Counted from the whole stretch's first letter, positions 1 to 63,677 are shown. The stretch is DNA of 63,677 bases, filler included, from Folioceros fuciformis (GCA_049999805.1; 17 parts of 17 records of this genome joined end to end with filler, not necessarily neighbours in it), one strand, 5' to 3'. Numbers and translations are program-made. Notes: generated from the letters alone by a model not told the origin.

Positions 1-1
1 C

Positions 2-1384
2 TTGCCTGAAAACAAGAACAAAGTCACTCAGGCTGCTGCAAAGTCCATGCTTCATCTTGCTAGGCTTCCTCGCAGCTTTTGGGCCGAAGCAGTTGCAACC
101 GCTGTCTATATCCAGAACAGGCTGCCCACTCGTGCCTTCAACGATGCCACTCCCTTTGAAAGATGGACTGGTGTCAAGCCTCGCGTGGATCACCTTCGGA
201 TATGGGGCTGCCCTGCGTATGCACATACACCCGATGAGATCAATCGGAAAATGGACTTTAAAGCTACAAAGCACCTATTTATTGGCTATACGGATGACAT
301 CAAGGGCTACAAGCTTTATGATCCATCGCATCAACGATTCTTACACGCAAGAAACGTCATATTTGACGAGCAGTTTCTGTTGCAAGCTTCAGGAAAGCAC
401 AGGGACGTACCAGGCCTACAACGTCTAACGTCTTCTAAACAAGGTGCAACTGAACTTTCAACTCAAGATGAACCTCTGGTTACCTCTCATCATGCACCGG
501 TTGTTCCAGTCCAACTTGCAGATGTGTTCCCAGACGACAAGCCTGACCTCACTGCCGACGACTCTCATTCCGAGGCTAGTGAACATTCGAATAATGACCA
601 GCAGGAGAACTATGATGTCATGGACGATGACACTCCATCATCCCCTCCTGCAGCTGAGGAAGAAGTCGAGGAATAGTCTGCCGATCATGCTGAGGAACCA
701 GTCGATGAGCCTCCAGTTCTCAGAAGGTCATCTAGAACCCACACAACTAATCCAAGTCAGTAGGCAAACAAGCCGTTGGGTTATGAACTGGATGAGGCTT
801 ACAGGCAGCAAAGCTCTAATCTCACATCCAGTGACACCTTACCTCACAAGAATGCCTTACCTAGTACCTATGTTGCTCAAGCTTTGCTCGCAGCACAGGA
901 TCTTGGAGAGCCAGCCACTCTGAAGGAAGCCCTGTCCTCTCCCGAAGGCAAAAGCTGGCAAGCAGGCGTTGACTCGGAAAACCAGTCCCTCGTTGACAAC
1001 CAGACTTGGGAGCTGGTAGACCTGCCTCCAGGACGCAAGGCACTCACAGGCAAATGGGTGTTCAAGAAAAAGCTTAATCCTGATGGAACTGTGGCCAGAT
1101 ACAAGGCGAGATACGTGGTGCATGGATACAAGCAAGTCGAAGGACTTGATTTTCACGAGACTTTCTCACCTGTTGTACGGACGTCCTCTGTAAGGATGCT
1201 CTTTGCACTGGCTGCAGAATGCAAGCTTGACATCCAGCAGATGGATGTCAAGACCGCCTTCCTGCACGACACAATAGACGAAGAAATGTACATCACACAG
1301 CCAGAAGGTTATGTCAGTAAGAAGGAACCTCATAAGGTATGCAAGTTAAAGAAAAGCCTGTATGGCTTGAAACAGGCTAGTTAG
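2..1384 (+). mobile_element. Ty1/copia pol fragment (integrase C-terminal part plus RT N-terminal part), disrupted
   Basis: ORF 2..676 has FWAEAVATAVYIQNRLP and FIGY...GYKLYD. ORF 776..1384 has WVFKKK, RYKARYV, QMDVKTAFL and KKSLYGLKQ. A stop separates the two ORFs and RT ends at the foldback. Confidence 0.95.
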
Positions 1385-1843
1385 GGCATCCACTTTCGTT
1401 ACCCCCACTTAGACTGTATTCCCGCCGTCGTGAACTTCGCATGCGCCGTAAACCGCGCCAGTTCTCAGCTTCCGCATACTCTTCGTCTGCAGAATGAATT
1501 GCAGCTATGCTGAGTGTCGGCGGAATTTCTCACTTTGGCGTAGCTTCTCCTCCCTGCTAAGCTCAAGTCTGCCAGCCTTCTAGAGCATCGGTCTATTCCC
1601 GGAAAATCTTCTCTACTCCCAGGAGGCAACGCAGATCAGTAGTACAATCAGGAGCAGCAAGAAAAAGCTGCCGTCCAAGTGAGAAATCCTGCCAACACTC
1701 AGCATAGCTGCAATTCGTTCTGCAGACGAAGAGTATGCGGAGGTTGAGAACTAGCGCGGTTTACGGCGCATGCGAAGTTCACGACGGCTGGAATATAGTC
1801 TAAGTGGGGGTAACGAAAGTGGATGCCCTAACTAGCCTGTTTC
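1369..1843. repeat. Long inverted repeat (foldback or MITE-like), arms ~175 bp, spacer ~120 bp
   Basis: GAAACAGGCTAGTTAGGGCATCCACTTTCG... at 1369 is the reverse complement of ...CGAAAGTGGATGCCCTAACTAGCCTGTTTC ending at 1843. The arms (about 1369-1545 and 1665-1843) align with scattered substitutions. Confidence 0.95.
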
Positions 1844-2290
1844 CCGGCGTCAAGTAGTGTTTAGGTCATAACGTGAATATATATATATAAACAAACGGTA
1901 CTCTATCGAACCGATAACCGTCAACCGGCGTACCGGTTCACGGGACACGGCCTTATATGCCTCACACACACATACACATGTATCTTTAATCTAAGCTTCT
2001 TCCTCTACACTGTGTGCTATCGATCCTACGCTAGGCTTGTGAATAAATAATACATATGGCTACTAACAACCTACTTGCCCTTTTCCTTGGTCTATGATTT
2101 TTAGGTGTTTTCTACATTGATGTGCTAACCTATGTAAATGTGCCACGGCACCGCCCCTCACATACATCATGATGCACATGGATTACCAAATATCCTTAGC
2201 GTGAGTCTCTAGACGTGAAAATAATAGAGCAGCAAGACGAATCGCACCCTACTCAACATCCAAGGTTCGTAACTAGCCACTTTCCTATGT

Positions 2291-2427
2291 CATGTTAGGT
2301 GCATAAGTACGTAGGGCAACTTGTACATTGCATATTTTATGCTACCTTGTGTGGCACACTGTGGTATACATGTTAGGTGCATAAGTACGTAGTGCAGCTT
2401 GTACATTGCATATTTTATGCTGCCTTG
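2291..2427. repeat. ~58-bp direct repeat, 2 copies, period 78 bp
   Basis: CATGTTAGGTGCATAAGTACGTAG...TTGTACATTGCATATTTTATGCT at 2291 and 2369. Confidence 0.85.
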
Positions 2428-3796
2428 CACTGTGTTTTGTTGTGTTGTGTTGTGTCATGTCGTGTTGTGTGCTTGCAGATGCACATACATGTGATTGACA
2501 TGTTTGCACTTCAAAGTTTACTCTTGGATTTTGTAATATATTCATGTTCTTAGGAGTAGCCTTGCATGTTTCCCTGCTTCCTGGCATGCACTATAAGAAG
2601 GTTTGATCGGCTACGTAATGCACTTTATTTTTGTAGTGATGAATCTGATGATCAGTGAAAAAAGGATTTGGTGAGTAGCGTGTGTTTAAGGCTGACAGGC
2701 TGGGAAGGTCATCCCCCCGCACAAGGGGGAAGCGTCACATTTCGGAAGGTACGACATGGCAACCCAGCCAAGTGGGTGGTCGCCATTTCCCAAACGCGGA
2801 GTGTACGAGCATTAATGATCTTGTGTGATAGTGTTGCGCTGCCTGTGCACCATGTTGGACTGCGCGCCCCAAGTTGCGGTCATTAATCCACTCGGCTTTT
2901 GTCGTATTCTTGAGGCGGCTGACAGGTGGTGCCTAGTCGAGCCAGCTACTATTGCTTCATTGCAGCGTGAACCTTCAATGGTTTGCTGTCGTGCTAGGGC
3001 AATGTTGGGATGAGTCGAGCCCTGAGCTTGGCCAACACCCACTTGAAGCTTGGGGTTCCGGCTTGCACATTAAGCATTTGTACATGTATCCTAGTGTTGT
3101 TTCCCACTACTCTGCATGTCACAGATTGCGGCACAATCTGCTGCAAGTGAGGGCAATCCATGTCCAAAAAATGGAAGATTCTAATTCCACTTCAGATCCG
3201 TTCTGATTCGGTTCTGAGCCTTGTTGTTTGCTATGCATGTTCATGGGGGAATGCAACCTAAGGAGCATGGGACTAGTCCTCGTTACAGACTGAGATCCTG
3301 TGACATCCCTGGACAAAGCACCCCACCTAGACGTGCATACACACAACGGAGGAGGGCAGCCAAGAGGTAGGAGCAATCTCAAGAGTTTATGGAAGTCAGC
3401 TTCGACCTCGACACTCCACCTTCAACAGCAAGGCCATCAACGAGCTGGTCCCCATTTACAAGTTTCCTCATCTCCGAGCCTTCAACTTTGGAGGGAGAGC
3501 AAGCTCCATTTCAAAGCTAGCTACCTGAGGAGGAGACACAGGGAGAGTTCTTGTTAGAGCAATCCTTGGGCCATACACCCTTGGAGCAACCCCACTTGCC
3601 AACTTGGGGTGGGTAGCCTTCAGTTCACTCAGGCCTTAGATTTCCTTATCCAGGACAGCAATACATCAGCCAGTCACGTGCTGAGGATTCTGAAGACTCA
3701 GACGACATGGAGGGAGGAGCACCTTACAGGCATGAGAGATTTTCAGGGAGGCCAGGTACATAGCCCCTACAGGACTTTAGGTTATTTGTCAATGGC

Positions 3797-4744
3797 ATGA
3801 TCAGTCGGGTTAAGTTTAAACATGGTGCTACGTACAACCACCTCTACATGTTTGAACAATTGGCTGGGCATCTAGCAGACGAGGCCCTAGACTTGTATGA
3901 GGTGCACCAAGCTGAAATTACAGCAACGGTGGCCACACCTAACCCCCTGTTCCAGAATGCATTGCAACTTACAATGCATAGCTTACAATGCTAAGCTAGC
4001 TAATGCAATTAGTGCTCACAAGGCTAGTATTGCTGCTAGAAGCATTGCAGCCACAGTGCAACCACCAACAGTGGTCAGCCTAACAACAATAGAAATGGCT
4101 GCAGCTACTACAGGTGTGGATGCTGACATCCTCACACCCAAGCATGCCAACCCAGTGGAAGACTTTTTGGGGATTTTGGAAAAGGCTTTTCCCCTCAAGA
4201 CACCTAAGAAGATTGCGGAGTTGGCAAGTTTTGCGTGCAAGAAAGGTGAAACTGTTAAGATGACCTTCCGTCGACTACAGAAATTGCGAGAGGGTACAGG
4301 AATGCTAACAGACCAGGAGGCAGCACAAAAATTCCTCACTGCACTAGAAGGTGATCCACTTTTCCACTTTCAGCTCTTCACATCCCTTGTGGATAAGTGT
4401 GGAGACAGTTATACTTTGGAGCAGGTGCATGAGGAGGCGGAGAAGAAGAAATTGCATTCTCAGCATATGCCTCAAGGCATTCCAAGGCCTTCACGCATTA
4501 TCAAAGCATGTTCTCTAGTAAGAACATAGCTGCTGAGAGTGTAGGTGTTGGGGCATCCAAGTCTACTCAAGCTAAGCCAGCCAAAGTAGGAGCTGCAGCA
4601 ACCTTGGAGGCTTTGTGCAATCGCTGTAGCAGTCTGGAGTACATAGCTCCAGCCTGCAAGTGCCCTCCTGAAGGACTGCTTTGCTCTCATTGCCAGAAGC
4701 CTGGACATCTTGTGACTCTATGTTTCCAGAAGCATCCAAAGTGA
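3797..4744 (+). pseudogene. Retrotransposon gag with tandem zinc knuckles (frameshifted)
   Basis: CNRCSSLEYIAPAC (degenerate, H to Y) and CSHCQKPGHLVTLC (perfect CX2CX4HX4C) at about 4616-4723, with capsid-like helices upstream. Confidence 0.75.
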
Positions 4745-5713
4745 AGGCAACAGCGAGGGGGCACCACAAATGTTGTAGGGACAGCTCCCACTTCCACTGA
4801 TTCAAGCCCCTCGGCTACAGGCGATTCAGGAGTCTCACGTAGCAAACAGCAGCGAGAGAAGACCAAGGCCAAGGTGGCTACTAATGCAAACAAGCTCACT
4901 TCACTGGAAGCAACCGTGGCTGCTCTTGCCACACAGGTGGGGGCACTTTCAGCTAGCATCTCTAGCAGCGTAGCTGCTTCCAAGCCAGCTGGGACAACCA
5001 CACTGGCGGCATCACCAATAGAGGATGATGAGGACTATGGGCTACCGCATGACGCTGTACAGTAGATGTGGCAGCATCAGCATCACAGCCAAGTTCCCCC
5101 CTACCTTCTACATGGGTAGGATAAGACCTTCAGTGGTTGACCATGGCTGCAGCAGCTGGATCTACTGGACCTGTCACACGTCAGCGTGGGGCAAGGGCTG
5201 CCATGCCTCAGTCTTTCACCCCCCTTCCTCCTGGAGCATCCATCCCGGTGCGGGGACAGGATCACTTGGATGATGGACAGCTAAATATGGCTGGTCTAGG
5301 ATTACAAGACAGGTCACCTACGCATACAGGGTGCCCGACCTATTCAAGCTGGGGGTTGATGTCATCTCTTGCCACATGTGATGAGAACTGAGCAATTGGC
5401 CCAACGCTTGGCAACTGCGCCGTTGTTTTTAGTTTAAGACATGTGCATCAGTCCTGGGCAGTTGAGCCAGGCCTTGAGGAGTGGAGAATCAACTACATTT
5501 GTCATAATGACTGTTGGAACAACTAATATTGAATGAGCTACAGGTTTGCCAACAACCTCAGCCACAAACATGTCATTTTCAGCAATGGATATGGCTCCAC
5601 AGTGGGACCTGGGATCTATGCTAGGCGTATACACCTCTCAATGTGCCACGTCCATGCCAAGTTGCCCTCATGTGCAGCCCACCAACCACATGAAGGTGTG
5701 TGTCGGCAATACC

Positions 5714-6088
5714 ATGGTGGATAACCGAGAGGGGCATGTCACTGTCAACAGATATGCACCAAAGATGGTCCTATTGGATACTAGGGCGCAGCCCATCATC
5801 ATCGACAAGACCCTTGCTGCAAGGCTGCGATTCGGTGGAGATGCTCTCAAAGCATCACCGTGGAACATCAGGACAACATCTGGGTCAATTGAGCCTATCT
5901 GTGGAGAGACTGTACAGCCAGTTACCATTACGTTGAAGCTTGGCACAGCCTCCTCCATGACGCTTGCCTTGCATTGTCTAGTGACCACGGCCACAAATTA
6001 TGATGTGCTTCTTGATCAAGAGTTCCTCTTCCCTCCAGGCATAGGCGTGGACAACTGGTTCGAGCTTGCCTACTATAGACCTGATTAG
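5714..6088 (+). pseudogene. Retropepsin-like aspartic protease
   Basis: VLLDTRAQPIII (DTGA motif with G to R), flap IRTTSG, and C-terminal YDVLLDQEFL (D-x-L-L-G motif with G to D). Confidence 0.8.
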
Positions 6089-6476
6089 AGGAACGGAGGT
6101 CAACAGGTGGCCTACTTGCCTCTTGATCTCCATGGAGCCAGTGAGGTGGACACTGCAACCTTGATTGCTCCACTGGTGCTTGCATGCACCTTGATTCTTG
6201 ACACCAGGCAAGTGGACACTTAGCTGGATACCAATCTTAATGACGAGGATGGAATGATGGACCAGCCAGGTTAGTCATTAGCAGCAACCTCGTGCTTGAG
6301 GGATGTGTTGTTGAAAAATGACATGGGTGACCCGTCTGCAGACATCTTGCATTTGGCCACCCCACATGTGCAATTGGCCCTTCAAAGGATGCAGCCACCT
6401 CCTACACCAGATGAGCAACCCACGCTTGGCGATGTCAATCAGTCCATCATAGCATGGACACCCTCTGCACCTGGCT

Positions 6477-6744
6477 TTGACAGTTCTGGAACTGTTTGGG
6501 GGCCTATGCCCTGGATTGGAAGCCATGCTGCAGAATGGGCTGGTTGTGGCCCAATACATTTATTGTGACAAGTGTCCCATAGCCAAGAAGCTAGCTACTT
6601 TTCAAATTCAGGGACTTCAATCCCAATTTTCAGCATGGTTGCCACTCATTGCCATGGCTGCCATGTTTACAGCCCTTCCACAGGATGTCCAGTACATCCA
6701 GGTTGGGCACATTCAGCGCCTACCACCCATAGACATCGTAGTGG
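6477..6744 (+). pseudogene. C5-cytosine DNA methyltransferase, N-terminal half (motifs I-III and the lead-in to motif IV)
   Basis: TVLELFGGLCPGLEAML (SAM-binding motif I), YIYCD (motif II acidic residue), LPQDVQYI (motif III), then PPIDIVV, which in DNMT3/DRM-type enzymes precedes G-x-P-C. Spacing parallels DNMT3 VLSLFDGIATG / YIASE / GDV / PFDLVIGGSPC. Confidence 0.8.
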
Positions 6745-6936
6745 TGTCAATAGGATCGACTCCAGTCTACGTGCAAGTGTAGAAGAGGAGAGGAGAGAAG
6801 AGAGGGTGGTATTGGTGATCACAACCATGAAAACAATACACATCACCACTGTCTTACTATGGAGGTCCGAGGTCTCCATTTAAGTAGTACATTTAGGGCT
6901 ACACAACTTCCAGGTTCAATATGGGATAATCTACAC
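6745..6936 (-). mobile_element. LTR-like insertion truncating the DNMT domain
   Basis: Abrupt start TGTCAA at 6745 and non-coding composition. It shares CAATATGGGATAAT with the reverse-oriented copia LTR at ~17822. Confidence 0.6.
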
Positions 6937-21715: not shown

Positions 21716-22255
21716 GTAAGACTGCCGTTCCATAATAGTTGAAATGCAGATGGAGACGTTATGGTGCAGAGTCTCCCGTCCCTTGTACACGCGCTAAAGA
21801 TTGCCCTTCGCACTTACGTGTGTTACACTTCTTGTGGACTTGTTGCGTCCTTACGGAAGACCTACTTTGGTATCTGAAATCTTCCTCGTTATTAGCAGGG
21901 AATGTCGAGTTTTTAATTACTCAAGGACAGGTCATGTGTTAACCATGCCTGTCGGTTCTCTACGCTGTTGTTTTGAGAGGCTGTTTTCCCTTCACCGTGT
22001 GCTTTCTCTTACTAAACTTTAAAGGTCTGTCCTGGAATTTCGGCATGGGTCCGGGGGGACAAGAAGCAAAGTCCTTGCTTGTTTGAGTCGGAGTCGGCAT
22101 ACTTTGTGAAAATCCCTGGCGGCCTCTCCCTAATCATTAAAATGGAGGGTGGAAGCTGAATATCGTGCATTCCTGGTTTTTTTTAATGGTACTTCATTCT
22201 GTAACTGAGGACTTTAATCTTGCATTGACGGAAGTTGACATGTTTGCTGGCACAG

Positions 22256-23605
22256 CAGGGCATACTCTCTGCTGTAAAGCTTGAGATAGAAAACGATTTG
22301 AAGGTCGTGAATGCTGAGGCATCTGCTGCTATATTAAAGCAAACGCATGTGCAGCAAAGTATGGAGCCGAGCACATCTAAATGTTTACAAGGGGTTGAGG
22401 GCAGTCTCACGGACAATATTGCCCCTCTTCCGTTGAGGAAGAAAAAGCAGGTGCTGGACACACAGTGTGTGGTTGAATCTCAAGAGACATCCTGCCGAAG
22501 ACCTGGGAGGGCGGTAGCTTGCCCTCGTTGTGAGAGCCGTGATACTAAGTTTTGCTACTACAATAACTACAACGTTAATCAGCCTCGTCACTTTTGTAAG
22601 AACTGCCAGCGTTACTGGACAGCAGGTGGGACTCTGCGCAATGTTCCCGTTGGAGCTGGTCGTAGGAAGAACAAGAATGGGCTGTCAACAATGCAGAGAC
22701 ATTTCGTGCTTGAGGATGGACCTGTAAGAGCTGATGCTCCAGATGCTGCACTTCCCTGTAACCAACTATCTGCAATTGGTGGGAAAGCAAGTGTGCTTTC
22801 CTCAGAACTCTATAAACAATGTGCAAAGCAATTGGAAGTTTTTCCCTCAAAGGCTGCTACGGCGTCAGAGAATGCTGTGCCAATTGCTGGCGAAGTGATT
22901 AGGGAATTTGGTTCTGGTAAGCATGTCTGTACCGATGATGATTTTGCTTTGCAATGGAAGTCCCGATTGGATTCTGCTTCAAATCCTCGTCCTGGACCAA
23001 CGTGTGTGCCAACTGTGAGATGTAACTCGACCTTCTCAGCACATCCTAGTGCAATTTCTGATTGGACATCAATGAGTCGGTTTTGTGGAGCATGGCCCCA
23101 TGGCTACACTGTGGATTGGAGTAGAGATATGAGTGGGTTAGGAGGCAAGCTTGTCCCACGAAGTCCAACACAGTTGATCGGTGTTCCCAGTATCGGATGT
23201 CAAGAAAGGTCGGAGTCCATGGGGCAGGGCACTTGGGGGACTGTACACTGGTTGAACGTCTGGTGTGTGCCTGAGTGGCCAGTTAGACGTGCCTCTAATT
23301 GTCATCCATTAGCTATGTCCTCTTTAGGCAAACATTTGCGTGATGTGACGTCTGCAGAGAGCAGAGAGGGCGGAGGTCTGTGGGCACCAAAGGTCCATAA
23401 GACTGAGGATCTCGGGTCTTGCTGCCAGTCTTTTATGGGATCAACTCCCAAGTTGGGCAGGGAACCTCAAACGAGCAGCGCTCTTATGGGCTTTCAGCGG
23501 AAGATACTTACCAAGGACTTTCTGGAGGATGGTCTAACAGGCAAGACAAGGCACGCTAACCCCGCTGCAATGACGAGATCTATGGTCTTCCAGGAATTCA
23601 ACTAG
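22256..23605 (+). CDS. CDF-type Dof transcription factor, exon 2
   Basis: Dof zinc finger [50 protein letters not shown], and C-terminal LGKH, LWAPK and ANPAAMTRS motifs. In-frame CAGCAG acceptor at 22253-22258. Confidence 0.95.
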
Positions 23606-39951: not shown

Positions 39952-42900
39952 TCTCCGTGACTTTTGCAGGCATTCAACAAAGATGTCAAACACACCACAT
40001 CACTTTGGCCCTCACATGATAATAGCATCCTCTCTGCCTCATCTAATTCGCCAGCACGCCCAAGAAGATCAATCATGCAGGTGTGATGCTCAACAGTAGG
40101 TATGACACCATGCTGTTCAGACATGGAATCAAAGAGCTTGCGACCCTCCTCGACCAGACCCCCATGACTGCATGCTACTAGAAGGCAAGTAAAAGTAGCA
40201 TCGTTAGGATGAACACCGGCAGCTAACATCTCCTCAAAACAAGCTAGCGCCTTGCGACCTTCATCACATGCACCATACCCAGCAATCAGGGCATTCCATG
40301 TCACCACATCTTTAGTGGTCATGCTGTCAAAAAACTGGCGTGCATCTTCCACCTCACCACATTTCGCATACATGTCCACCAGGCAGGTTCCCACCACTAC
40401 ATTATCCAGCAGTTCTCTTTCGACAATCTGTGAGTGCATCTTCCTGCCCATCTGCAAGGCACCACTGCTTGCACACGCCTTCAGAATGCAAGCAAAAGTA
40501 ACATCATTAGCCAAAACGAGGCCTGCCTCCTCCATCTGTCCATACACAACAAGGGCCTGTTGGCCGAGTCCTTGCTGTGCATACCCAGCAATCAGAGCTG
40601 TCCATGTAACCACATTCTTTGTGTTCATACTGTCAAAAACCTGGCGGGCATCTTCCACCTCACCACATTTCGCATACATGTCCACCAGGCAGGTTCCCAC
40701 CACTACATCATCCAGCAGACCTCTGTTGACAATCTGTGAGTGCAGCTCCCTGCCCTTCTGCAACGCACCAGTGCTTCCACACGCCTTCAAAAGGCAAGCA
40801 AAAGTAACGTCATTAGCCAAAACGAGGCCTGCCTCCTCCATCTGTCCATACACAACAAGCGCCTCTTGCCCGAGTCCTTGCTGTGCATACGCAGCGATCA
40901 TGGCTGTCCATGTCACCACATCCTTCGAGGCCATGCCATCGAAAACCTGGCGGGCACCTTCCAGGTCACCACATTTTGCATACATGTCCACCAGGCAGTT
41001 TCCAACCACTATATTATCCAGCAGTTCTCTCTTGACAATCTGTGAGTGAAGCTCCCTGCCCTTGCGCAAGGCACCAGTGCTTGCACACGCCTTCAGAAGG
41101 CAAGCAAAAGTAACATCATTAGCCAAAACGAGGCCTGCCTCCTCCATCTGTCCATAAACAACAAGGGCCTCTTCGCCGAATCCTTGCTGTGCATACCCAG
41201 CGATCATGGCTGTCCATGCCACCACATCCTTCGAGGCCATGCCGTCGAAAACCTGGAGGGCATCTTTCAGCTCACCACATTTTGCATACATGTCCACCAG
41301 GCAGGTTCCCACCACTACATCATCCAGCATACCTCTGTTGACAATCTGTGAGTGCAGCTCCCTGCCCTTCTGCAAGGCACCAGTGCTTCCACACGCCTTC
41401 AGAAGGCAAGCAAAAGTAACATCATCAGCGAAAGCGAGGCCTGCGTCCTCCATTTGTGCATATACAACAAGCGCCTGTTGGCCGAGTCCTTGCTGTGCAT
41501 ACCCAGCGATCAAGGCATTCCAGGTCACCACATCTTTAGTGGCCATGCCGTCAAAAACCTGGCGTGCATCTTCCAGCTCACCACATTTTGCATACATGTC
41601 CACCAGGCAGTTTCCCACCACTATATTATCCAGCAGTTCTCTCTTGACAATCTGTGAGTGAAGCTCCCTGCCCTTCTGCAAGGAACCAGTGCTTGCACAC
41701 GCCTTCAGAAGGCAAGCAAACGTCACATCATTAGCCAAAACGAGGCCTGCCTCCTCCATCTGTCCAAACACAACAAGCGCCTCGTGGCCGAGTCCTTGCT
41801 GTGCATACCCAGCGATCAGGACCGTCCATGTTACCACATCCTTCGTGTTCATGCCATCAAAAACCTGGCGTGCATCTTTCATTCGGCCACATTTTGCATA
41901 CATGTCCACCAAGCAGCTGTTAACAAACAAGTCAGTACGGAAGCCACTGCGCAACACGTCACGGTGCACTGTTCTGCCAGATTTTAAGTCGGCAGCAAAT
42001 GCACAAGCTTGAAGGGAGGCTACAAATACATAACCATCCGCCTTCACTTCTGACCTACGCATTTCATGGTACAGTTGTATGGCCTCCTTCGGCTTCCCGT
42101 GCTTAGCATGTGCAGAGATTATGGAAAACCACATGAAGACATTCGGTTTCCCTACCCTATTGAACACATCCATCGCCTCCTTTAGCCTACCTCCACATGC
42201 ATACATGCGCAAGATATGGTTCCCCAAATATGCATTCGACTCGTACCCAAGTTTGGCTGTGAGATCATGAACTCGTCGCCCCACCACCAAATCCTTCTTA
42301 GCTGTACAGAGTTTTAACACTGTGTAAAACAGAGACTGAGAAACACCAGAGCCTGACTGCACCAGAGATTCCAGGGCTCCAACGGCCTCAGAAAGCTTCC
42401 CCTGATGACATAACATGCTCACGGTTGCAGCAGTTACGACGCCCGTTTCCAATTCTGCACGCCTGCCAGATCCACGCTTATACAGAGAGCTGCACTCGAA
42501 AGAAGAGACTCCATGACCCATTGGATGTGAAAGTGCTGGGTTTCTTACACTGCTGCCCCTGGAGCCCATTTCACCACCTCTACGCCTTCCAGGTTCAGGA
42601 TTATCTGGAGAGCTCAAGTTGCAAGCAGAGGAACCGAGACCCATCTGCATATCCAAGGAGACGAGCTGCTCATCAACCCAAGCTGGCTTAAACATGTTGT
42701 CCACCCACAGCACCTCGCCGGACCCCTTACGCCGGAAGTCAGGGGAACGGGAGCTCTTCTTGTCTCGTCTGTTATCCCACCACATGGTGGGGTCCAGAAA
42801 AAGTTGTTGCCACAAGTGCTCCTGCTGCTCCTGGCAACTACCAGCATCGTCGGAAAACCCGTCCCTGCCCACACAGGTTCTCGTTCTCGGAGGTGGAAGT

Positions 42901-43046
42901 GCTGGGCTCCTCACACTGCTGCACCTGGAGCCTTTGTTTGCAAAGGGTCCACTCCCAAAGCTGAGGTGAGCGGGGGTTCCTGGTAGAGTCCTTCTACACA
43001 CACCAATTCCAATTTGTTGGGTCCACAACAGGTCCGGTTGCCATAC
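39952..43046 (-). CDS. PLS-class PPR protein with E domain and N-terminal OSB/PDF-like motif (open at both contig ends)
   Basis: Uninterrupted frame of more than 1000 aa with 102-aa P-L-S triplets (VVTWxAxIAGYAQQG / VTFACLLKAC / VGxCLVDMYAKCG), S2-E1 HHTCMIDLLGRAGELDEAE...LLNACKSHG, and WWDNR...PDF...LW near the N-terminus. Confidence 0.95.
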
Positions 43047-47052: not shown

Positions 47053-47585
47053 CTATGTCTCACCCAAAAGACCAGCACATAGCTGGGCCCGTTCATTCCT
47101 CAGCATAGCAATCTCCATCCTTATGCCCTCATCGCCTTGTCCAGCCCCCTCGGCAATTGTTTGCTCCAGAGTTGCGATAATCCGTTCAATACTTTTTATC
47201 TGATCATGTCTAGCGATCAGGAATGAGTAGCATGTACCAGGCCGTCCTGAAATACCACAGGAACGCAACAGGTCCATGCAACAAAGATACGAAACAACCT
47301 TTCGGTGCGGCCATCGTCTCATGCCATTCCGTCGACAGATCTTCTTCAGCACAGTTGGGCAGATTCCAAGCTCCTTTGCTGCAGCGTTAATAGGCAGATG
47401 AAAATGCTGTGCCAGATCGGTCATCTTCAGCTTGCCTGTCCTCTCCCTCTGCAGTAAATCATAGCTATGCAAGCTTCATCTTCTGCAAAGATCAACCATT
47501 CAAGGATCCTCCTGCTTCAGAAGGTTGCACAGCAAGCCAGAAAAGAGAAGAAAGCAACCTGTGCTGCAGCGTTGCTCTTCAGAGG
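47053..47585 (-). CDS. RWP-RK transcription factor without PB1, last three exons (47585-47559, 47448-47299, 47199-47053)
   Basis: Spliced product AAAQ|RERTGKLKMTDLAQHFHLPINAAAKELGICPTVLKKICRRNGMRRWPHRK|IKSIERII. Phase-0 GT-AG introns of 110 and 99 nt. The 5' part lies beyond the contig. Confidence 0.92.
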
Positions 47586-48060: not shown

Positions 48061-51000
48061 TTAGGTTGAGGAGCAGTCTTGAATACCGAGCGCCTCCATA
48101 TGTATCATATGTTTGGAAGCAGGTAGGTATTTCGTAAGCAGATCAGCTGGATTCAGATCAGTTGAAACATGCTGAATTGTCACTTCTTTCTGTTGAACAG
48201 AATGCCTAATAAAATGATGTTGCACCTCAATGTGTTTTGTGCGGGCATGAAAGCGTGGATTAGCTGTCATAGCAATTGTAGATAAATTGTCACAGAAAAT
48301 GGGCGTAGGCTGTAGCTGAGGAAAGCCAAGTCCAGCAAGAAAACAACGCTCCCAAATAGCCTCTTTAGAGGCTTCAGTTAAAGCCTTATTCTCTGCCTCA
48401 ATCGAGGAGAGAGCTACAGAAACCTGTTTCTTGGAACTCCAATGGATGGCAGCACCAGAGAGGGTAAAACAATGTGCGGATATGCTTCGACGCACATCCG
48501 GATCTGTGGCCCAGTCAGCATCAGCCCAACCAGAGACGGCAAGTGTGTCCTTTCTTCGCCCCCGGAAGCATAGCCCATAATGTAAAGTGCCCCGTAAATA
48601 CCGAAGAATGCGTTTAACGGCACCCCAGTGCTCCTTACCAGGATTGTCCAAGAATTGAGAAACGGCACTAACAGAATACTGGATATCAGGACGGGTCCAG
48701 CAGGAGATATAATTAAGGCACCCGACCGCATGTCTATAAGGAACAGTAGACATGGCTGCCTTCTCAGAATCTGTTTGAGGACATTGGGCAATGGACAATT
48801 TAACACCAGCAACACGAGGAGTGGCTACAGGCTTGGCAAACTCAAGTTGAAAACGACGAAGAGTTTCTAAAATATATTTAGACTGATGTAACATGATGGT
48901 GTTAGAAGAAAAATCTCGAACCAACTGTACACCAAGTACAAAGGTGAGGGTGCCAATATCCTTCATGTCAAACTTGGAATGAAGCATCTGTTTAACCCAA
49001 GCCAGTAATGCAGGATCATTGGAAGCCAGTATAGCATCGTCAACATATAAGGCAAGCACCACCATACCACCAGCCTTGGAATAGAAATAAACATTAGCAT
49101 CACCTGGATTTTGCAGAAACCCAAGAGACTTGAGGTATGCGTCAATGGTTTTGTACCATTCCCTAGCAGACTGTTTAAGACCATATATGGTCTTCTTGAG
49201 ACGACAAACCCAGTCAGGATGTTCAGGGTCTACAAAGCCTTCAGGCTGTTGCATGTATATGTCCTCCTCAAGCTCCCCATAAAGAAAAGCAGTACATACA
49301 TCCATCTGTTGCAAATCCCAGGCATGAGCTGCTGCAAGAGCAATAATCATCCGTATGGATTGAGTTTTGACCACTGGGCTAAAAGTTTCTGTGAAGTCAA
49401 CTCCAGGAATTTGGGTAAAACCCCGTGCTACCAAACGGGATTTATACCTAGCAATCTCTCCATTTGCATTCAACTTATGTTTGAAAACCCACTTGGAGCC
49501 AATGACTTTACGTCCAGAAGACAAAGGACATAATTCCCAAGTGTCATTTTTAATAAGCGAGTCATACTCATCTTTGATGGAAGGGATCCAGAAATCCTTA
49601 TCTGGACCTGTAACTGCCTCATGATATGAACGAGGCTCCGACTTGTTGATAGAAGAAGGTATCTCTGTAGAAGAAACATGAACTTGAGGAAGAGAAACAC
49701 CAGCTTGATGTCTGCGAAAATCAATTGACTTGTATGGGGGTTCCGCCCATTGAGCTGGAGGTAATCGTGTCCTTTGTGGATACCGAGGCTCCGGCTCTAT
49801 CACATCTGGAAGAATAACAGGGAGGACCGGTTGAGGAGGTTCCCCATCCCCTGGAAGTTGCAGACCATCATTAGGAGGAATTGTATCCTGAAGGACATGT
49901 AAATCATCAGCACCAAATCCAGCCACAGCTTCATCATTGTTAACTTCAACATCAGCTATGGGGTGAGGATCTGCTAACATAGGAGGATCTACTGCTGCTG
50001 CAAAATCCTTGTCTAAACCAGGAGCTGAAACCTGTGGATCATGAACAAGAGGGACAAGAACTTGAGCATAATCTTCAGGAGCTTCATCTTGTGGAAAAGA
50101 AGTATACCCATCCTGGTCTGATATTTCAACATGTGTGACAGTCTCCTGATTATGTAGTAAGGAATCAAGATAAGGCTTGGCAGGAGAAGTAAGCTCCTTA
50201 AATGTCACACTTCGAGCAAAAATAGCTGAATTAGTAAGCGTGTCGTACAGCTTGTATGCCTTTGATTCTTCTCCATAACCCACAAATAGCAGAGGTTTGG
50301 CCCTGTCCTCCAACTTCTTACGTTTTTCCTCTGGCACATAAGCGTAGGCTGGAGAACCAAAGACCCGAAGATGTAAAATACTGGGCTTCCTTTGCCAAAT
50401 CACCTCAAAAGGAGTCTTGCCTTCCACCGCACTTGTCAGGAGACGATTCAAGATATAGGTAGCGGTGACCACCGCCTCTGCCCAGAAGGCCTTGCTTAGA
50501 CCAGACCATTCTAGCATGCTTCTGGTCATGCCTAGTAGGGTCTGATTTCTCCTCTCAGCAACGCCATTCTGCTGCTGAGTATAAGGAACTATAAGCTGCC
50601 TTACAATTCCATTGTCCAGCAAGAACTGAGTAAAATGGGCATGGACAAATTCTGTCCCATTGTCTGTACGAAGACATTTCAACAAGAGTCCTGTCTGACG
50701 TTGAATCATGACGAGCCACTCCTTAAAGACATTAAAAGTATCAGACTTTAACCTAAGAGGAAAAGTCCAGGAATACCTACTGTAGTCATCCGTAAGTGTT
50801 AAATAGTATTGTGCACCCCCTAAACTTGGAACATGGATTTTTCCAGAAGTATCCGCATGCACAAGATCTAAGACCTGAGATGCACGATGGGCAACAGTTC
50901 TAGGAAAAGGAACTTCTTTCTGCTTAGCAATTACACATGCATCACACAAGGGTAAGTTCTTAAAACACTTAGGCAGCGGCTCTCTATGGCAAGACAGATT

Positions 51001-52530
51001 TGCCATTTTGATAAGTTTATCCCGGTTTGCATGGCCAAGTCTAGCATGCCAAAGACGGGCCTCTGCAGCTTGGGATGTCTGAGCAACATGAACAACGTCA
51101 CCAGACAGGCAAGTTAAGTCAAGCTGATACAAGTCATGGACTAAAGTACCATTTGCTACGACCTGCTTATCCCCCCCTCTGCTTATAAGCTGACAAGCAG
51201 ACAAGGAGAACATCAGGTCGTAAAGACGAAGGGACATCAACTGACTGACGGAAATCAAATTCTTAGCCATGTGCGGGACGTGCAGAACATTTTCTAAATG
51301 CAAAAGTGAGCAATCATTCAAACGAAACACACACGTACCATGACCTTTGATGCTCAAGCCTGTACGTGTAACTTCATCACCTAACAGAACTTTGTCAGAG
51401 GTGAGAGATGCCTTGTAATAATGGAATATGGACCGATTATTACAGATGTGAGACGTGGCCCCAGAGTCTAGGTACCAAGTGTGTGGGGAGTGAAATGCAG
51501 ACGAGACAAAACAAACTGTCATTACAACAGGTTGCTTGTGAGGTGTCGACGAAGATGGTCGGTCCTTGGTGGCAGCAACATGTGCTTCAGCCTGTCGAGA
51601 AGGCTTCTCAGCTTTGCGTGCCTCACTAGCTTTCTTTTTCCTGCATTCTCTTTCCCAATGGCCCTGGATACCACACCAGTTGCATGATCCAGCCCGTTTT
51701 GTCGAGCCAGGTTTAAAACCTGCTCCAGAGGGAGGCCGTTGTTTGCTAAACCTGCCCTTGGTGAACAAAACCTTGTCAGTCTTCGTTTTGCCACCGTGGT
51801 AAGTGGACGTGAGTCTGCTTTGTTCCTCCTGCAACAGAGCTCCAATCACGTCGGAAAGATTTATGTTTGTGGGTTGTCCTGCAGCTCGTGCAGCATCAGC
51901 AGCCCGGACTGTAGCTCCATAGCTAGAAACAAAAGTTTGGTAGCTAGGAGGCAAGCTCGTCAGCAGCTGACTAACAGCATCGAGCTCAGGGAACTGTGAA
52001 CCAAGGTGGATTAGTTGGGCTCGCAATTGTCTGAAGCGGATGACAAAAGGAGACACCTTGTCACCTTCCTTGAGACGTAAGGAAAACAGTTCACCACGAA
52101 CAGCACACATGGTAAGAATATTCTTAGCCTCATATGTCTGTGTGAGAAGAGTCCAGATCTCTTCAGCCTTGGTAAGAAAAGCGACATCGGCGAGAAGAGA
52201 TTCGTCCAGCCCGCTAATCAAGACGGCGCGTGCAACGTAATTCAGGTTCGCCCACTTGTCCTTTTCTTCTTGTGTGGCAGATTGTGCCGGTTCCTTAAGC
52301 GTGCCAATAACAACTCCCCATACATGCCGAGCTTGCAGGGCAGCTGTCATGCGCACCTTCCAGCCTTCAAATTTCAGGCCATTGAATCTGTCTCGCTCCT
52401 TAAACTCCACAGAATAAGATGGCTGTGGGATGACAGGAACTGCAGGAAGAGAGGGGACAGTTCCACCTCCGCCTCCTCCCCCTCCACCTCCACTTCCGGT
52501 ACCGCTTCCTCCTCCGCTTCCAGTAGCCAT
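48061..52530 (-). mobile_element. Ty1/copia full-length uninterrupted gag-pol ORF (1489 aa)
   Basis: CNWCGIQGHWEREC, WYLDSGATSH, WHARLGH...CDAC, D-D-E region (TDDYSR, TDNGTEF, GVAERRN), LYVDD, ADADWA, ADLLTK. LTRs are not in the contig. Confidence 0.98.
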
Positions 52531-52854
52531 GACCTTTATTTCAGAAGGAGATCAGGACGGATGATCAGACCGCCCAAGATCTTCTTCGAAGAATGGATCA
52601 TGCTACAAGAAAGGTTGACAGTCGGAAGAGAAGCGCGTAGCGGGAGAGAGGTAAAGTCAGGGTTTCTAGATTTTGCAGCAGAGAGCGCTTGTGACAATTG
52701 GTAGCACGCTGGATGTCACCGGAGTCATGCTGCAGGGGCGTCCGCAACAACCAANNNNNNNNNNNNNNNNNNNNNNNNNNNNNNNNNNNNNNNNNNNNTT
52801 AATTAATTAANNNNNNNNNNNNNNNNNNNNNNNNNNNNNNNNNNNNNNNNNNNN

Positions 52855-62289: not shown

Positions 62290-63677
62290 AGTGTGTTGCC
62301 GGCTATGCAACGTCTGGTAGGATCGCAAGCCGTGTGTTGCCGGCTGTACAGTGTCTGGTAGGATCGCAGGCAGCGTGTTGCCGGCTGTACAATGTCTGGT
62401 AGGATCGCGGGCAGCGTGTTGCCGGTTGTATAGTGTCTAGTAGGATCACAAGGTGTAATGACCAGGGTGTAGGGGCTTGCCCCTAGCTCTTGATTGTAAA
62501 GGGTGTGTCTTTCTCTCAACCTGTCCACTCTTGTTCCTTGCTTGGTCAAGTGCTGTAGGCCGGCCATGTCTCATGGCGTCTGGTAAGGTTGTGGGGAGGA
62601 GATACCCAAGAGGGGAGTGTGTTCCCTTCGTCCTTTTGTTTGGGGTTAGTCTAATGACTCTTGCCGGGTAGAAGGAGTCCGTAGGGAAGTGTAGAAGGTG
62701 GTGTCGTTGCTGGTAGCTGGTAGTTGTTGGTGTTGGTGCTGGAGCGAGAGAGTGAGTGAAGTGAGTGAAGGAAGTCGCAGATCTGAGCGGTTAGAGTCGT
62801 TGTAGTGGCTGGAGTGAGTTTGTGGGCACCGAGAGAGGTGCAGCTGACCGCCGGACAGCGAGGTCTGTCCTACGCCTGATCGGAGCTGGAGGGGAGCCCT
62901 CGAATCCGTCATCGAGTCGATCAAGTCCGACCCTCCATCCACAGCAGCAAGGAACCCCATCGCTCCTTCGNNNNNNNNNNNNNNNNNNNNNNNNNNNNNN
63001 NNNNNNNNNNNNNNNNNNNNNNNNNNNNNNNNNNNNNNNNNNNNNNNNNNNNNNNNNNNNNNNNNNNNNNAGGATCGCAAGCCGCGTGTTGCCGGCTGTA
63101 TAGTGTCTGGTAGGATTGCAGGCAGCGTGTTGCCGGCTGTACAGTGTCTGGTAGGATCGCGGGCAGCGTGTTGCCGGTTGTATAGTGTCTGGTAGGATCA
63201 CAAGGTGTAATGACCAGGGTGTAGGGGCTTGCCCCTAGCTCTTGATTGTAAAGGGTGTGTCTTTCTCTCAACCTGTCCACTCTTGTTCCTTGCTTGGTCA
63301 AGTGCTGTAGGCCGGCCATGTCTCATGGCGTCTGGTAAGGTTGTGGGGAGGAGATACCCAAGAGGGGAGTGTGTTCCCTTCTTCCTTTTGTTTGGAGTTA
63401 GTTTAGTGACTCTTGCCGGGTAGGAGGAGTCCGTAGGGAAGTGTAGAAGGTAGTGGTGTCGTTGCTGGTTGCTGGTAGTTGTTGGTGTTGGTGCTGGAGC
63501 GAGAGAGTGAGTGAAGTTTGTGAGGGAAGTCGCAGATCTGAGAGGTTAGAGTCGTTGTAGTGACTGGAGTGAGTTTGTGGGCACCGAGAGAGGTGCAGCT
63601 GACCGCCGGACAGCGAGGCCTGTCCTACGCCTGATCGGAGCTGGAGGGGAGCCCTCGAATCCATCATCGAGTCGATC
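62290..63677. repeat. Two diverged copies of a unit offset by ~752 bp across an N gap, each containing 40-41-bp tandem subrepeats
   Basis: About 62320-62925 aligns with 63071-63677. Subrepeat GTGTCTGGTAGGATCGCAGGCAGCGTGTTGCCGGCTGTACA. Confidence 0.88.

Follow-up and report, generated by a model that had tools for sequence, protein, structure and literature searches.

The window analysed here is the whole 63,677-base stretch of DNA taken from the Folioceros fuciformis assembly (GCA_049999805.1). It consists of 18 short contigs chained by N44-TTAATTAATTAA-N44 linkers and is not a single molecule. The linkers place stop codons in every frame, and an additional plain N100 gap is present at 62971-63070. 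Features on different contigs of the window are unlinked, even if they are neighbours. The subject of this report sits on contig 1 (1-6936), which is 6.9 kb long, ends at 6936 and contains transposon remains only. The plus strand of contig 1 from 3015 to 6744 is very probably a decayed and truncated copy of a Ty3/Gypsy-like element, with an intronless C5 cytosine DNA methyltransferase (DNMT) of the Dnmt3 type directly behind the protease (PR). A preliminary description of this DNA had reported gag fragments, two CCHC knuckles, a retropepsin and a DNMT-like piece in this order, and translation places all of them where they had been reported. The features of the element are as follows.

3015-3634, plus strand: probable 5' terminal or untranslated part; the repeated region begins near 3015, and the boundary is inferred.
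3635-3919, plus strand: gag N-terminal region (ERFSGRPGT...); tblastn, E 2e-4 to 5e-6.
4095-4373, plus strand: gag central region; tblastn of relatives.
4616-4723, plus strand: two CCHC zinc knuckles; frame-2 translation and tblastn.
5585-6196, plus strand: retropepsin-type aspartic protease; profile, tblastn and alignment.
6369-6473, plus strand: linker between protease and methyltransferase; tblastn, with frame shifts within 6453-6568.
6474-6743, plus strand: first 90 residues of a C5 cytosine methyltransferase of the Dnmt3 type; phmmer, profiles and alignment.
6745-6936, no strand assigned: unrelated tail of a purine-rich tract and a very-high-depth repeat, outside the element.

Proteins related to the element were gathered (n=281; labelled with P-numbers) and typed by their domains, with Pfam scans on part of them. 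In the 47 proteins of type B, the DNMT lies directly behind the protease or directly before the reverse transcriptase (RT). In the 108 proteins of type A, the order is RT, RNase H (RH), DNMT and integrase (INT), usually followed by a PHD finger. The remaining proteins are undecided DNMT-only fragments (84) or lack a DNMT (42).

The methyltransferase piece lies in the open reading frame (ORF) at 6453-6782, the translation of which reads LTVLELFGGLCPGLEAMLQNG...YIYCDK...LPQDVQYI...PPIDIVVV. Another excerpt of the same translation reads LTVLELFGGLCPGLEAMLQNGLVVAQYIYCDK...LPQDVQYI...PPIDIVVV. Motif I is assigned to ELFGGLCPG, motif II to YIYCD and motif III to LPQDV, followed by the strand IDIVVV. 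Motif I, the SAM-binding loop (F-x-G-x-x-x-G; LFDGIATG in DNMT3), agrees with nine relatives at their invariant columns (E, F, G, G and L) and also fits motif I of DNMT3A, and YIYCD and LPQDV fit the invariant Y, Y and D and the near-invariant L-P-Q-D columns of the relatives' alignment. A phmmer (HMMER) search of 1.84 billion representative proteins returned 320 matches at E<=1e-3, including 43 at E<=1e-10; the best match (E 4.4e-19) is 47% identical over residues 8-98. DNMT and protease profiles were built from the relatives alone and scanned over the 1152 six-frame pieces of the window. The profile of 19 type-B DNMT domains matches the piece at E 1.2e-23 and that of 64 type-A domains at E 7.7e-29, and neither matches any of the other 1151 pieces. 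The piece covers profile positions 2-92 of 314, a span that takes in motifs I-III and the strand that precedes motif IV. The alignment, phmmer and the family profiles thus confirm the earlier assignment of these three motifs and of the strand leading into motif IV. Against the PDB, phmmer gave a single weak match, to motif I of DNMT3A (E 1.8). A protein-atlas feature search, taken as a lead only, placed 30 of 30 matches in C5 methyltransferase clusters (score 0.94).

Upstream of this piece, the copy has the gag, CCHC knuckles and subsequent retropepsin of a Ty3/Gypsy element, albeit with a mutated active site. The gag N-terminus is matched in tblastn by P0199 (residues 39-134), P0207 (59-136), P0069 (58-141), P0214 (68-122) and others. 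The central region is matched by residues 140-231 of P0216 at 4146-4373 (tblastn, E 7e-10) and by P0202 and P0207 at 4095-4352. The knuckles translate in frame 2 as CNRCSSLEYIAPAC and CSHCQKPGHLVTLC; the first is degenerate, with Tyr in place of His, and the second is a canonical CX2CX4HX4C. The CCHC regions of P0216, P0199, P0215 and P0223 align to 4616-4774 by tblastn, and Pfam recognizes the knuckles weakly (zf-CCHC_2, E 0.22). Three-frame translation shows the protease motif MVLLDTRAQ...YDVLL within the ORF at 5537-6088. Pfam gives only a weak match to the protease (PF13975, E 0.015). The profile of the proteases of 20 type-B relatives matches 5537-6085 at E 5e-34, and residues 243-398 of P0116 align to 5666-6139 with 39.6% identity (tblastn, E 6e-29). 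In the alignment, the active site of the window copy reads LLDTRAQ where relatives have LLDSGAE or LIDTGAE, such that DTR stands where D-[ST]-G is expected.

The arrangement of the copy corresponds to type B. In tblastn, over 25 type-B proteins are collinear with contig 1 along the full length of type-B ORF1, starting in gag and ending at DNMT motif III; residues 59-136, 213-294, 729-894 and 1002-1091 of P0207, for example, map in order. This collinearity supports the earlier view that the DNMT stands where RT would normally begin and that the copy is a dead relic of a Gypsy-DNMT element. The spacing of approximately 110 residues between protease and DNMT, and part of the linker, are common to the window and type-B proteins. 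Only type-B proteins extend their match upstream of the DNMT, from 6369 (P0204 and P0213), 6393 (P0215) or 6414 (P0019, P0218 and P0221), and IPLDLHGAQG of P0019 aligns to YLPLDLHGASE of the window across the stop codon at 6086-6088. In a tree of 31 protease rows, types A and B are split with support of 93/95 and the window falls on the type-B side, on a long branch whose join carries a warning of the tool. The nearest row is P0116 (39% over 159 columns), and the window protease lies outside a 98/98 core clade of 21 rows that contains the copies of Marchantia and Calypogeia. P0116 is a PR-DNMT protein, yet it also has YYYCD and PQDV and leans toward type A as the window does. The window copy and P0116 are read as members of a putative early-branching PR-DNMT lineage. 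Since the signatures and scores of the DNMT piece itself lean toward type A, what places the copy in type B is the protease tree, together with the linker and gene order.

Intact relatives indicate what has been lost. P0260 (2300 residues) encodes PR-DNMT-RT-RH-INT-PHD in one ORF, and its Pfam domains are as follows.

P0260, 635-730: protease.
P0260, 954-1085: DNMT.
P0260, 1395-1548: RVT_1.
P0260, 1612-1741: RT_RNaseH.
P0260, 1877-2042: integrase.
P0260, 2252-2296: PHD finger.

Searches for DNA encoding type-B members gave 80 matches for alignment A2, 26 for P0069 (metagenome contigs) and three for P0036 (viral contigs), and none was confirmed. Type-B long terminal repeats (LTRs) and ORF2 are thus seen only through the protein P0260. 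The Pfam DNA_methylase cut-off (PF00145, 22 bits) is passed by P0069 (45.5), P0207 (44.8), P0248 (43.8), P0036 (41.5) and P0097 (33.2), and also by P0025 and P0001; in one scan, 7 of 7 relatives passed, as did three of the five PF00145 matches in two other scans taken together. P0004 (16.2) and P0019 (21.1) fall below it. The 41 full type-B domains have WPCQG in 36, ENV in 40 and ERERAMGF in 39, together with HR.R. At E<=0.01, P0036 matches 29 PDB sequences, every one of them DNMT3A, DNMT3B or DNMT3C (best E 1.8e-10). The DNMT domain of the family is Dnmt3-like and, judged by sequence, the domains of the relatives are real enzymes. The preliminary description had suggested looking in the assembly for copies that continue into the later motifs and RT; among the related proteins, members carry motifs IV, VI, VIII and IX, and P0260 links PR, DNMT and RT.

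Two further features of the relatives deserve mention. A PHD finger follows the integrase in both architectures (P0004, P0013, P0011, P0014 and P0260), a position held by a chromodomain in many Gypsy elements. Type-A domains mostly have W-E-C-Q-D (34 of 82) or F-E-C-Q-D (9 of 82) as motif IV in place of P-C-Q, and 41 of 82 have ENT as motif VI. Every type-A motif IV variant listed retains the catalytic Cys; the Pro is often replaced.

The element is repeated in the genome from which it comes. Two DNA runs from one sample with one organism label (X1 and X2) contain 41% and 35% of the words of the stretch. The sample may be the source of the window's own assembly, and the runs are accordingly not independent support. 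Contigs of X1 and X2 aligned to 1-6936 at >=90% identity in 526 and 530 pieces, which divide into 141, 195 and 190 pieces (X1) and 151, 171 and 208 pieces (X2) at >=99, 95-99 and 90-95% identity. Error-free pieces have a depth of 9-14 (9.4-14) both in the flank (2523-3014 and 1935-2286) and inside the element (5234-5484). At the 5' side, error-free single-depth contigs end at 3014 in both runs (2523-3014 at depth 9.4 in X1; 2512-3014 at depth 13.3 in X2), and the summed depth jumps from 13-16 in bin 2553-2784 to 235-282 in bin 3017-3248. Over the coding part, the summed depth is several-fold higher than in single-copy pieces; it is 80-159 in the DNMT bins (6265-6728), and the DNMT piece is multi-copy together with the protease (bins 5569-6728). 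Because the summed depth over the element exceeds the single-copy depth, that genome contains the equivalent of some 4-15 copies of the family, with several copies >=90% alike. Copies differ mainly by transitions (52-65 places per transition class vs <=12 per transversion class). Two of ten single-base length differences between copies coincide with frame changes of the window copy, which indicates that some breaks are private to some copies. Neither tblastn nor blastn found further copies of the element inside the window.

Other runs gave additional observations. Run X3 comes from that sample too. Most of its differences from the window are G>A (33 of 50 listed places), identity is no higher than 90-95% in 107 of its 145 pieces, and loose ends correspond to a G-to-A converted window. 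X3 looks like a bisulfite-type library and is potentially informative on the methylation state of the element. Among the runs found to contain the stretch, none was listed as RNA. In run X4, guessed to be RNA, three pieces align to contig 1, and none of them lies on the coding part of the element.

The window copy is inert. In-frame stops occur, for example, after 3763, 4744, 6088 (codon 6086-6088) and 6223, and the frame changes at approximately 3891-3994, 4433-4529 and 6453-6568. Homology to relatives ends at approximately 6745, just short of the place where the catalytic P-C-Q would follow. By tblastn and profiles, which lose homology at 6743-6755, the window has neither motif IV, which holds the catalytic Cys, nor motifs VI (ENV), VIII (R-x-R) and IX/X. 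The tail at 6745-6936 matches no relative in tblastn or profile searches and resembles nothing elsewhere in the window. The summed depth of bin 6729-6936 is 18594 in X1, 33082 in X2 and 2960 in X3, compared with 37-191 (X1 and X2) for the element, and the depth of the tail is approximately 2000 times that of single-copy pieces. Since the tail matches no relative and has an extreme depth, the element has been cut by, or has recombined with, an unrelated and very abundant repeat, where the contig also ends. With gag, protease and linker damaged, a DTR active site and a methyltransferase that ends after motif III, the copy is dead, as the preliminary description had judged from its stops and frameshifts.

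Other features of contig 1 lie upstream of the element. The only RT match on this contig is a Copia-type fragment (RVT_2, E 2.9e-46) at 764-1384 on the plus strand, which ends at an inverted repeat (1369-1540 and 1672-1843) with 172-nt arms that are 94% complementary. The inverted repeat at 1369-1843 resembles a hairpin or an insertion like a miniature inverted-repeat transposable element into the Copia element. Two 59-nt direct repeats, 95% alike with 78 nt between them, are present at 2291-2427. This stretch has a summed depth of 433-928 in X1 and X2 and is another repeated family. Rfam found no family on contig 1. Host-type genes and a second Copia element are found on other contigs.

22229-23605, plus strand: Dof zinc-finger ORF (Pfam, E 2.4e-32).
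39952-43046, minus strand: PPR ORF (Pfam), with both contig ends cutting through it.
47053-47475, minus strand: RWP-RK domain ORF (Pfam, E 6.9e-25).
48061-52551, minus strand: unbroken 1496-residue Copia gag-pol ORF that nearly fills one contig.

The Copia ORF contains gag, CCHC, protease, integrase, RT and RNase H and may be a young element. By our own inspection, the PPR ORF is composed of repeated triplets of approximately 102 residues, which we take to be of the PLS class typical of land plants.

The genome that harbors the family is likely that of the land plant represented by the other contigs, and the attribution of contig 1 to this host is to be read as likely and not as proven. Contig 1 has a GC content of 0.49, a CpG observed/expected ratio (o/e) of 0.45 and a tetranucleotide correlation of 0.62; the values for GC, CpG o/e and tetranucleotides all fall inside the range spanned by the 14 other contigs >1.5 kb (0.25-0.68). 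In tetranucleotide profile, a comparison of the kind suggested by the preliminary description, contig 1 fits the other contigs. Inside the element, CpG o/e falls to 0.28 with a TpG/CpA excess of 1.49. Composition and depth fit an element that has long resided in the same repeat-rich genome with CG methylation, but are no proof of it. An embryophyte origin had been put forward on the basis of genes in the window. Composition, copies and liverwort relatives make that origin likely, but it is unproven, and the PPR, Dof and RWP-RK genes are on other contigs.

Records from liverworts indicate that such elements reside in land plants. A profile search with names gave 43 matches at E<=1e-5 among 7999 scored candidates, including two land-plant records, Calypogeia fissa CAM6115131.1 (714 residues) and Marchantia polymorpha MARPO_0008s0049 (961 residues). 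Both proteins have the protease-DNMT order with WPCQG, ENV and ERERAMGF intact, and liverwort proteins of this kind are annotated merely as "hypothetical" or "unnamed". The identical 961-residue Marchantia protein is encoded at two loci, MARPO_0008s0049 (PTQ47194.1) and MARPO_0009s0240 (PTQ47269.1), which suggests a recent duplication or transposition in this model liverwort. At least eight C. fissa records belong to the Calypogeia cluster, and the contigs that bear them measure 1.6-24 Mb (chromosome-scale). Because Haematococcus, Marchantia and Calypogeia records encode relatives, the family is spread over green algae and liverworts, and land-plant copies are already present, unnoticed, in public records. 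The preliminary description had regarded the element as an oddity in land plants. The Marchantia and Calypogeia copies make the element less odd than was thought.

Several observations weigh against the reading of 3015-6744 as a Gypsy-like element with a DNMT behind its protease, or against its placement in a land plant. Pfam assigned none of its families to the 109-residue DNMT piece, even at E<=10, below the gathering cut-off; a match to PF00145, which the preliminary description had named as a check, was thus not obtained. Word-based homology searches with the DNMT piece and with the protease gave no match. No relative is more than 48% identical to the DNMT piece or more than approximately 42% identical to the protease, and the record thus has no close relative of the window copy. 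Contig 1 lacks the 3' half of the element, and on this contig no RT, RNase H or DDE integrase of this element, no direct repeat (LTR) pair and, in a tRNA scan, no tRNA-like feature or match resembling a primer-binding site was found. The status of LTR retrotransposon would accordingly derive from relatives alone. In the tree of DNMT N-termini (97 rows, 108 columns) the placement of the window is not resolved, the type-A profile gives the DNMT piece a better score than the type-B profile does (96.9 bits vs 79.7 bits), and the signatures YIYCD and PQDV resemble type A. As to the host, contig 1 is without any host gene, a chlorophyte, Haematococcus lacustris, is the source of the one named type-A relative, and most other relatives are from metagenome, ENA or Logan contigs.

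The last of these points would be accounted for if contig 1 came from an algal or other micro-eukaryotic contaminant and the element were an ordinary algal member of the Gypsy-DNMT kind. The division of the window into short contigs with artificial linkers, the content of contig 1, the provenance of the relatives and the position of the window protease outside the Marchantia and Calypogeia clade are all compatible with this explanation. It is nevertheless unlikely: GC, CpG depletion and tetranucleotide profile agree with those of the other contigs, the element is multi-copy in DNA runs of one organism with flank and interior at equal single-copy depth, and the far deeper repeat that it adjoins is expected of a large repeat-rich genome. 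Nor is a contaminant needed, since chromosome-scale liverwort contigs carry the same architecture. The type-A score and signatures, and the heavy damage to the copy, could also be explained by a private internal deletion of RT and RNase H in a type-A element (PR-RT-RH-DNMT-INT), which would have brought the DNMT next to the protease. Such a deletion is less likely because the spacing and linker are shared with type-B proteins (P0019; P0204, P0213 and P0215 from 6369-6393), and with the protease also grouping with type B and its nearest neighbour P0116 combining the PR-DNMT order with YYYCD and PQDV, it is very improbable.

Two explanations would deny the element its methyltransferase. A pseudogene fragment of a host DNMT3 or DRM gene, lying by chance beside an unrelated gag-protease remnant, would agree with the sole PDB match of the piece, and the accessible text of PMC12344493 states that plants possess DNMT3 and DRM genes. 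This is hardly credible when the PR-linker-DNMT order recurs in 47 proteins of many sources, the linker is homologous to type-B linkers, and the piece is intronless and amplified jointly with the protease. That the stretch is no methyltransferase remnant and resembles one by chance is a negligible prospect. It could appeal to the missing Pfam match and to a length of only 90 residues without the catalytic motif, but it is opposed by the library E value of 4.4e-19 and by profile matches of E 1e-23 to 8e-29 with no second match among the six-frame pieces. Chance resemblance was rejected on the combination of the library match and the family-profile matches unique to the piece.

As a copy of a Gypsy-like element with a Dnmt3-type enzyme behind its protease, the inert window copy has its value as a pointer to the family. 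Intact type-B relatives would have the full order gag-CCHC-PR-DNMT-RT-RH-INT-PHD. Judging from this domain content, the polyprotein of intact members would be cleaved by its own protease, and the C-terminal PHD finger may read histone tails and guide integration. The Dnmt3-like enzyme of intact members has the full set of catalytic motifs and, by analogy with assays of other retrotransposon DNMTs published in 2018, may act as a de novo cytosine methyltransferase, with the element's own cDNA or new insertions as possible targets. A broader proposal is made tentatively, with confidence that falls somewhat short of even. The relic may be a trace of an undescribed and widespread Gypsy clade of the green lineage, which carries a catalytically intact Dnmt3 at either of two positions (PR-DNMT-RT or RH-DNMT-INT), both with a PHD finger, and which has recently been active in land plants. 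Recent activity is suggested by the two identical Marchantia loci, the Calypogeia records and the several closely similar copies here.

If this proposal is true, embryophyte genomes harbor transposon-borne de novo methyltransferases able to act on host DNA. In the usual picture, the host methylates transposons to silence them. Retrotransposons with their own cytosine methyltransferase reverse that picture. Should the family prove native to land plants, the methylomes of plants such as liverworts and this organism may include marks made by transposon enzymes, and surveys that count plant "DNMT3" copies may include transposon genes. The family also shows the same enzyme module at two polyprotein positions of one lineage, near a PHD histone reader.

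In the searchable literature, as far as its accessible text extends, DNMT-carrying retrotransposons are reported from dinoflagellates and from a single charophyte alga only. The available text of de Mendoza et al. (2018; PMC5890265) reports that Dnmt3 was captured in Klebsormidium nitens by a Gypsy element and in Symbiodinium by DIRS elements, and that retrotransposon DNMTs methylate CG de novo. For "streptophytes", the accessible parts of a 2026 preprint (10.64898/2026.05.21.726589) and of a 2025 paper (PMC12344493) cite only the 2018 work, and those of PMC11982613 and of a Marchantia preprint (10.1101/2021.02.12.428880) contain nothing on transposon-borne DNMTs. No paper on a land-plant DNMT-carrying retrotransposon was found in the literature searched, with most subscription journals and supplements outside its reach.

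Host plant DNMT3 and DRM and animal DNMT3A/B share the catalytic-domain family with the element. Unlike them, the element form is repeated in the genome and lies behind gag and protease in one ORF. As the preliminary description had noted for the window copy, the element form is intronless and lacks the companions of host genes, here PWWP, ADD, UBA or DUF domains. The liverwort PR-DNMT proteins have the same protease-linker-DNMT order as the window and are multi-copy, but they are only 30-38% identical to the window protease and 33% identical to its DNMT piece, and their own 98/98 protease clade excludes the window. SymbioDIRS-Dnmt3 of Symbiodinium is likewise a retrotransposon-captured Dnmt3-type enzyme with two coexisting domain orders, according to the available text of PMC5890265. 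It belongs to dinoflagellate DIRS elements, which have a tyrosine recombinase; in the present family, a DDE integrase (rve) occurs together with RT_RNaseH and a PHD finger.

KnitGypsy-Dnmt3 of K. nitens is likewise, in the text of PMC5890265 at hand, an intronless Dnmt3-type enzyme in a Gypsy polyprotein of a green-lineage (streptophyte) host. This likeness is drawn from the description in the paper and not from K. nitens sequence, and no sequence named K. nitens was among the relatives returned by the protein-library searches. Key catalytic residues are kept in the K. nitens copies, according to the same text, and in the relatives collected here. The differences are that the window host is apparently a land plant, that the window copy is truncated before motif IV, and that the relatives here end in a PHD finger, whereas "PHD" is absent from the main text of PMC5890265. 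The Gypsy-Dnmt3 kind has a Dnmt3-type DNMT inside a retrotransposon polyprotein. P0036 matches only DNMT3 in the PDB; in relatives the DNMT shares an ORF with gag and protease, and in P0260 also with RT, RNase H and integrase, and the window is collinear with these. The window copy belongs to this already known kind, and the interest lies in the family and in its presence in land plants.

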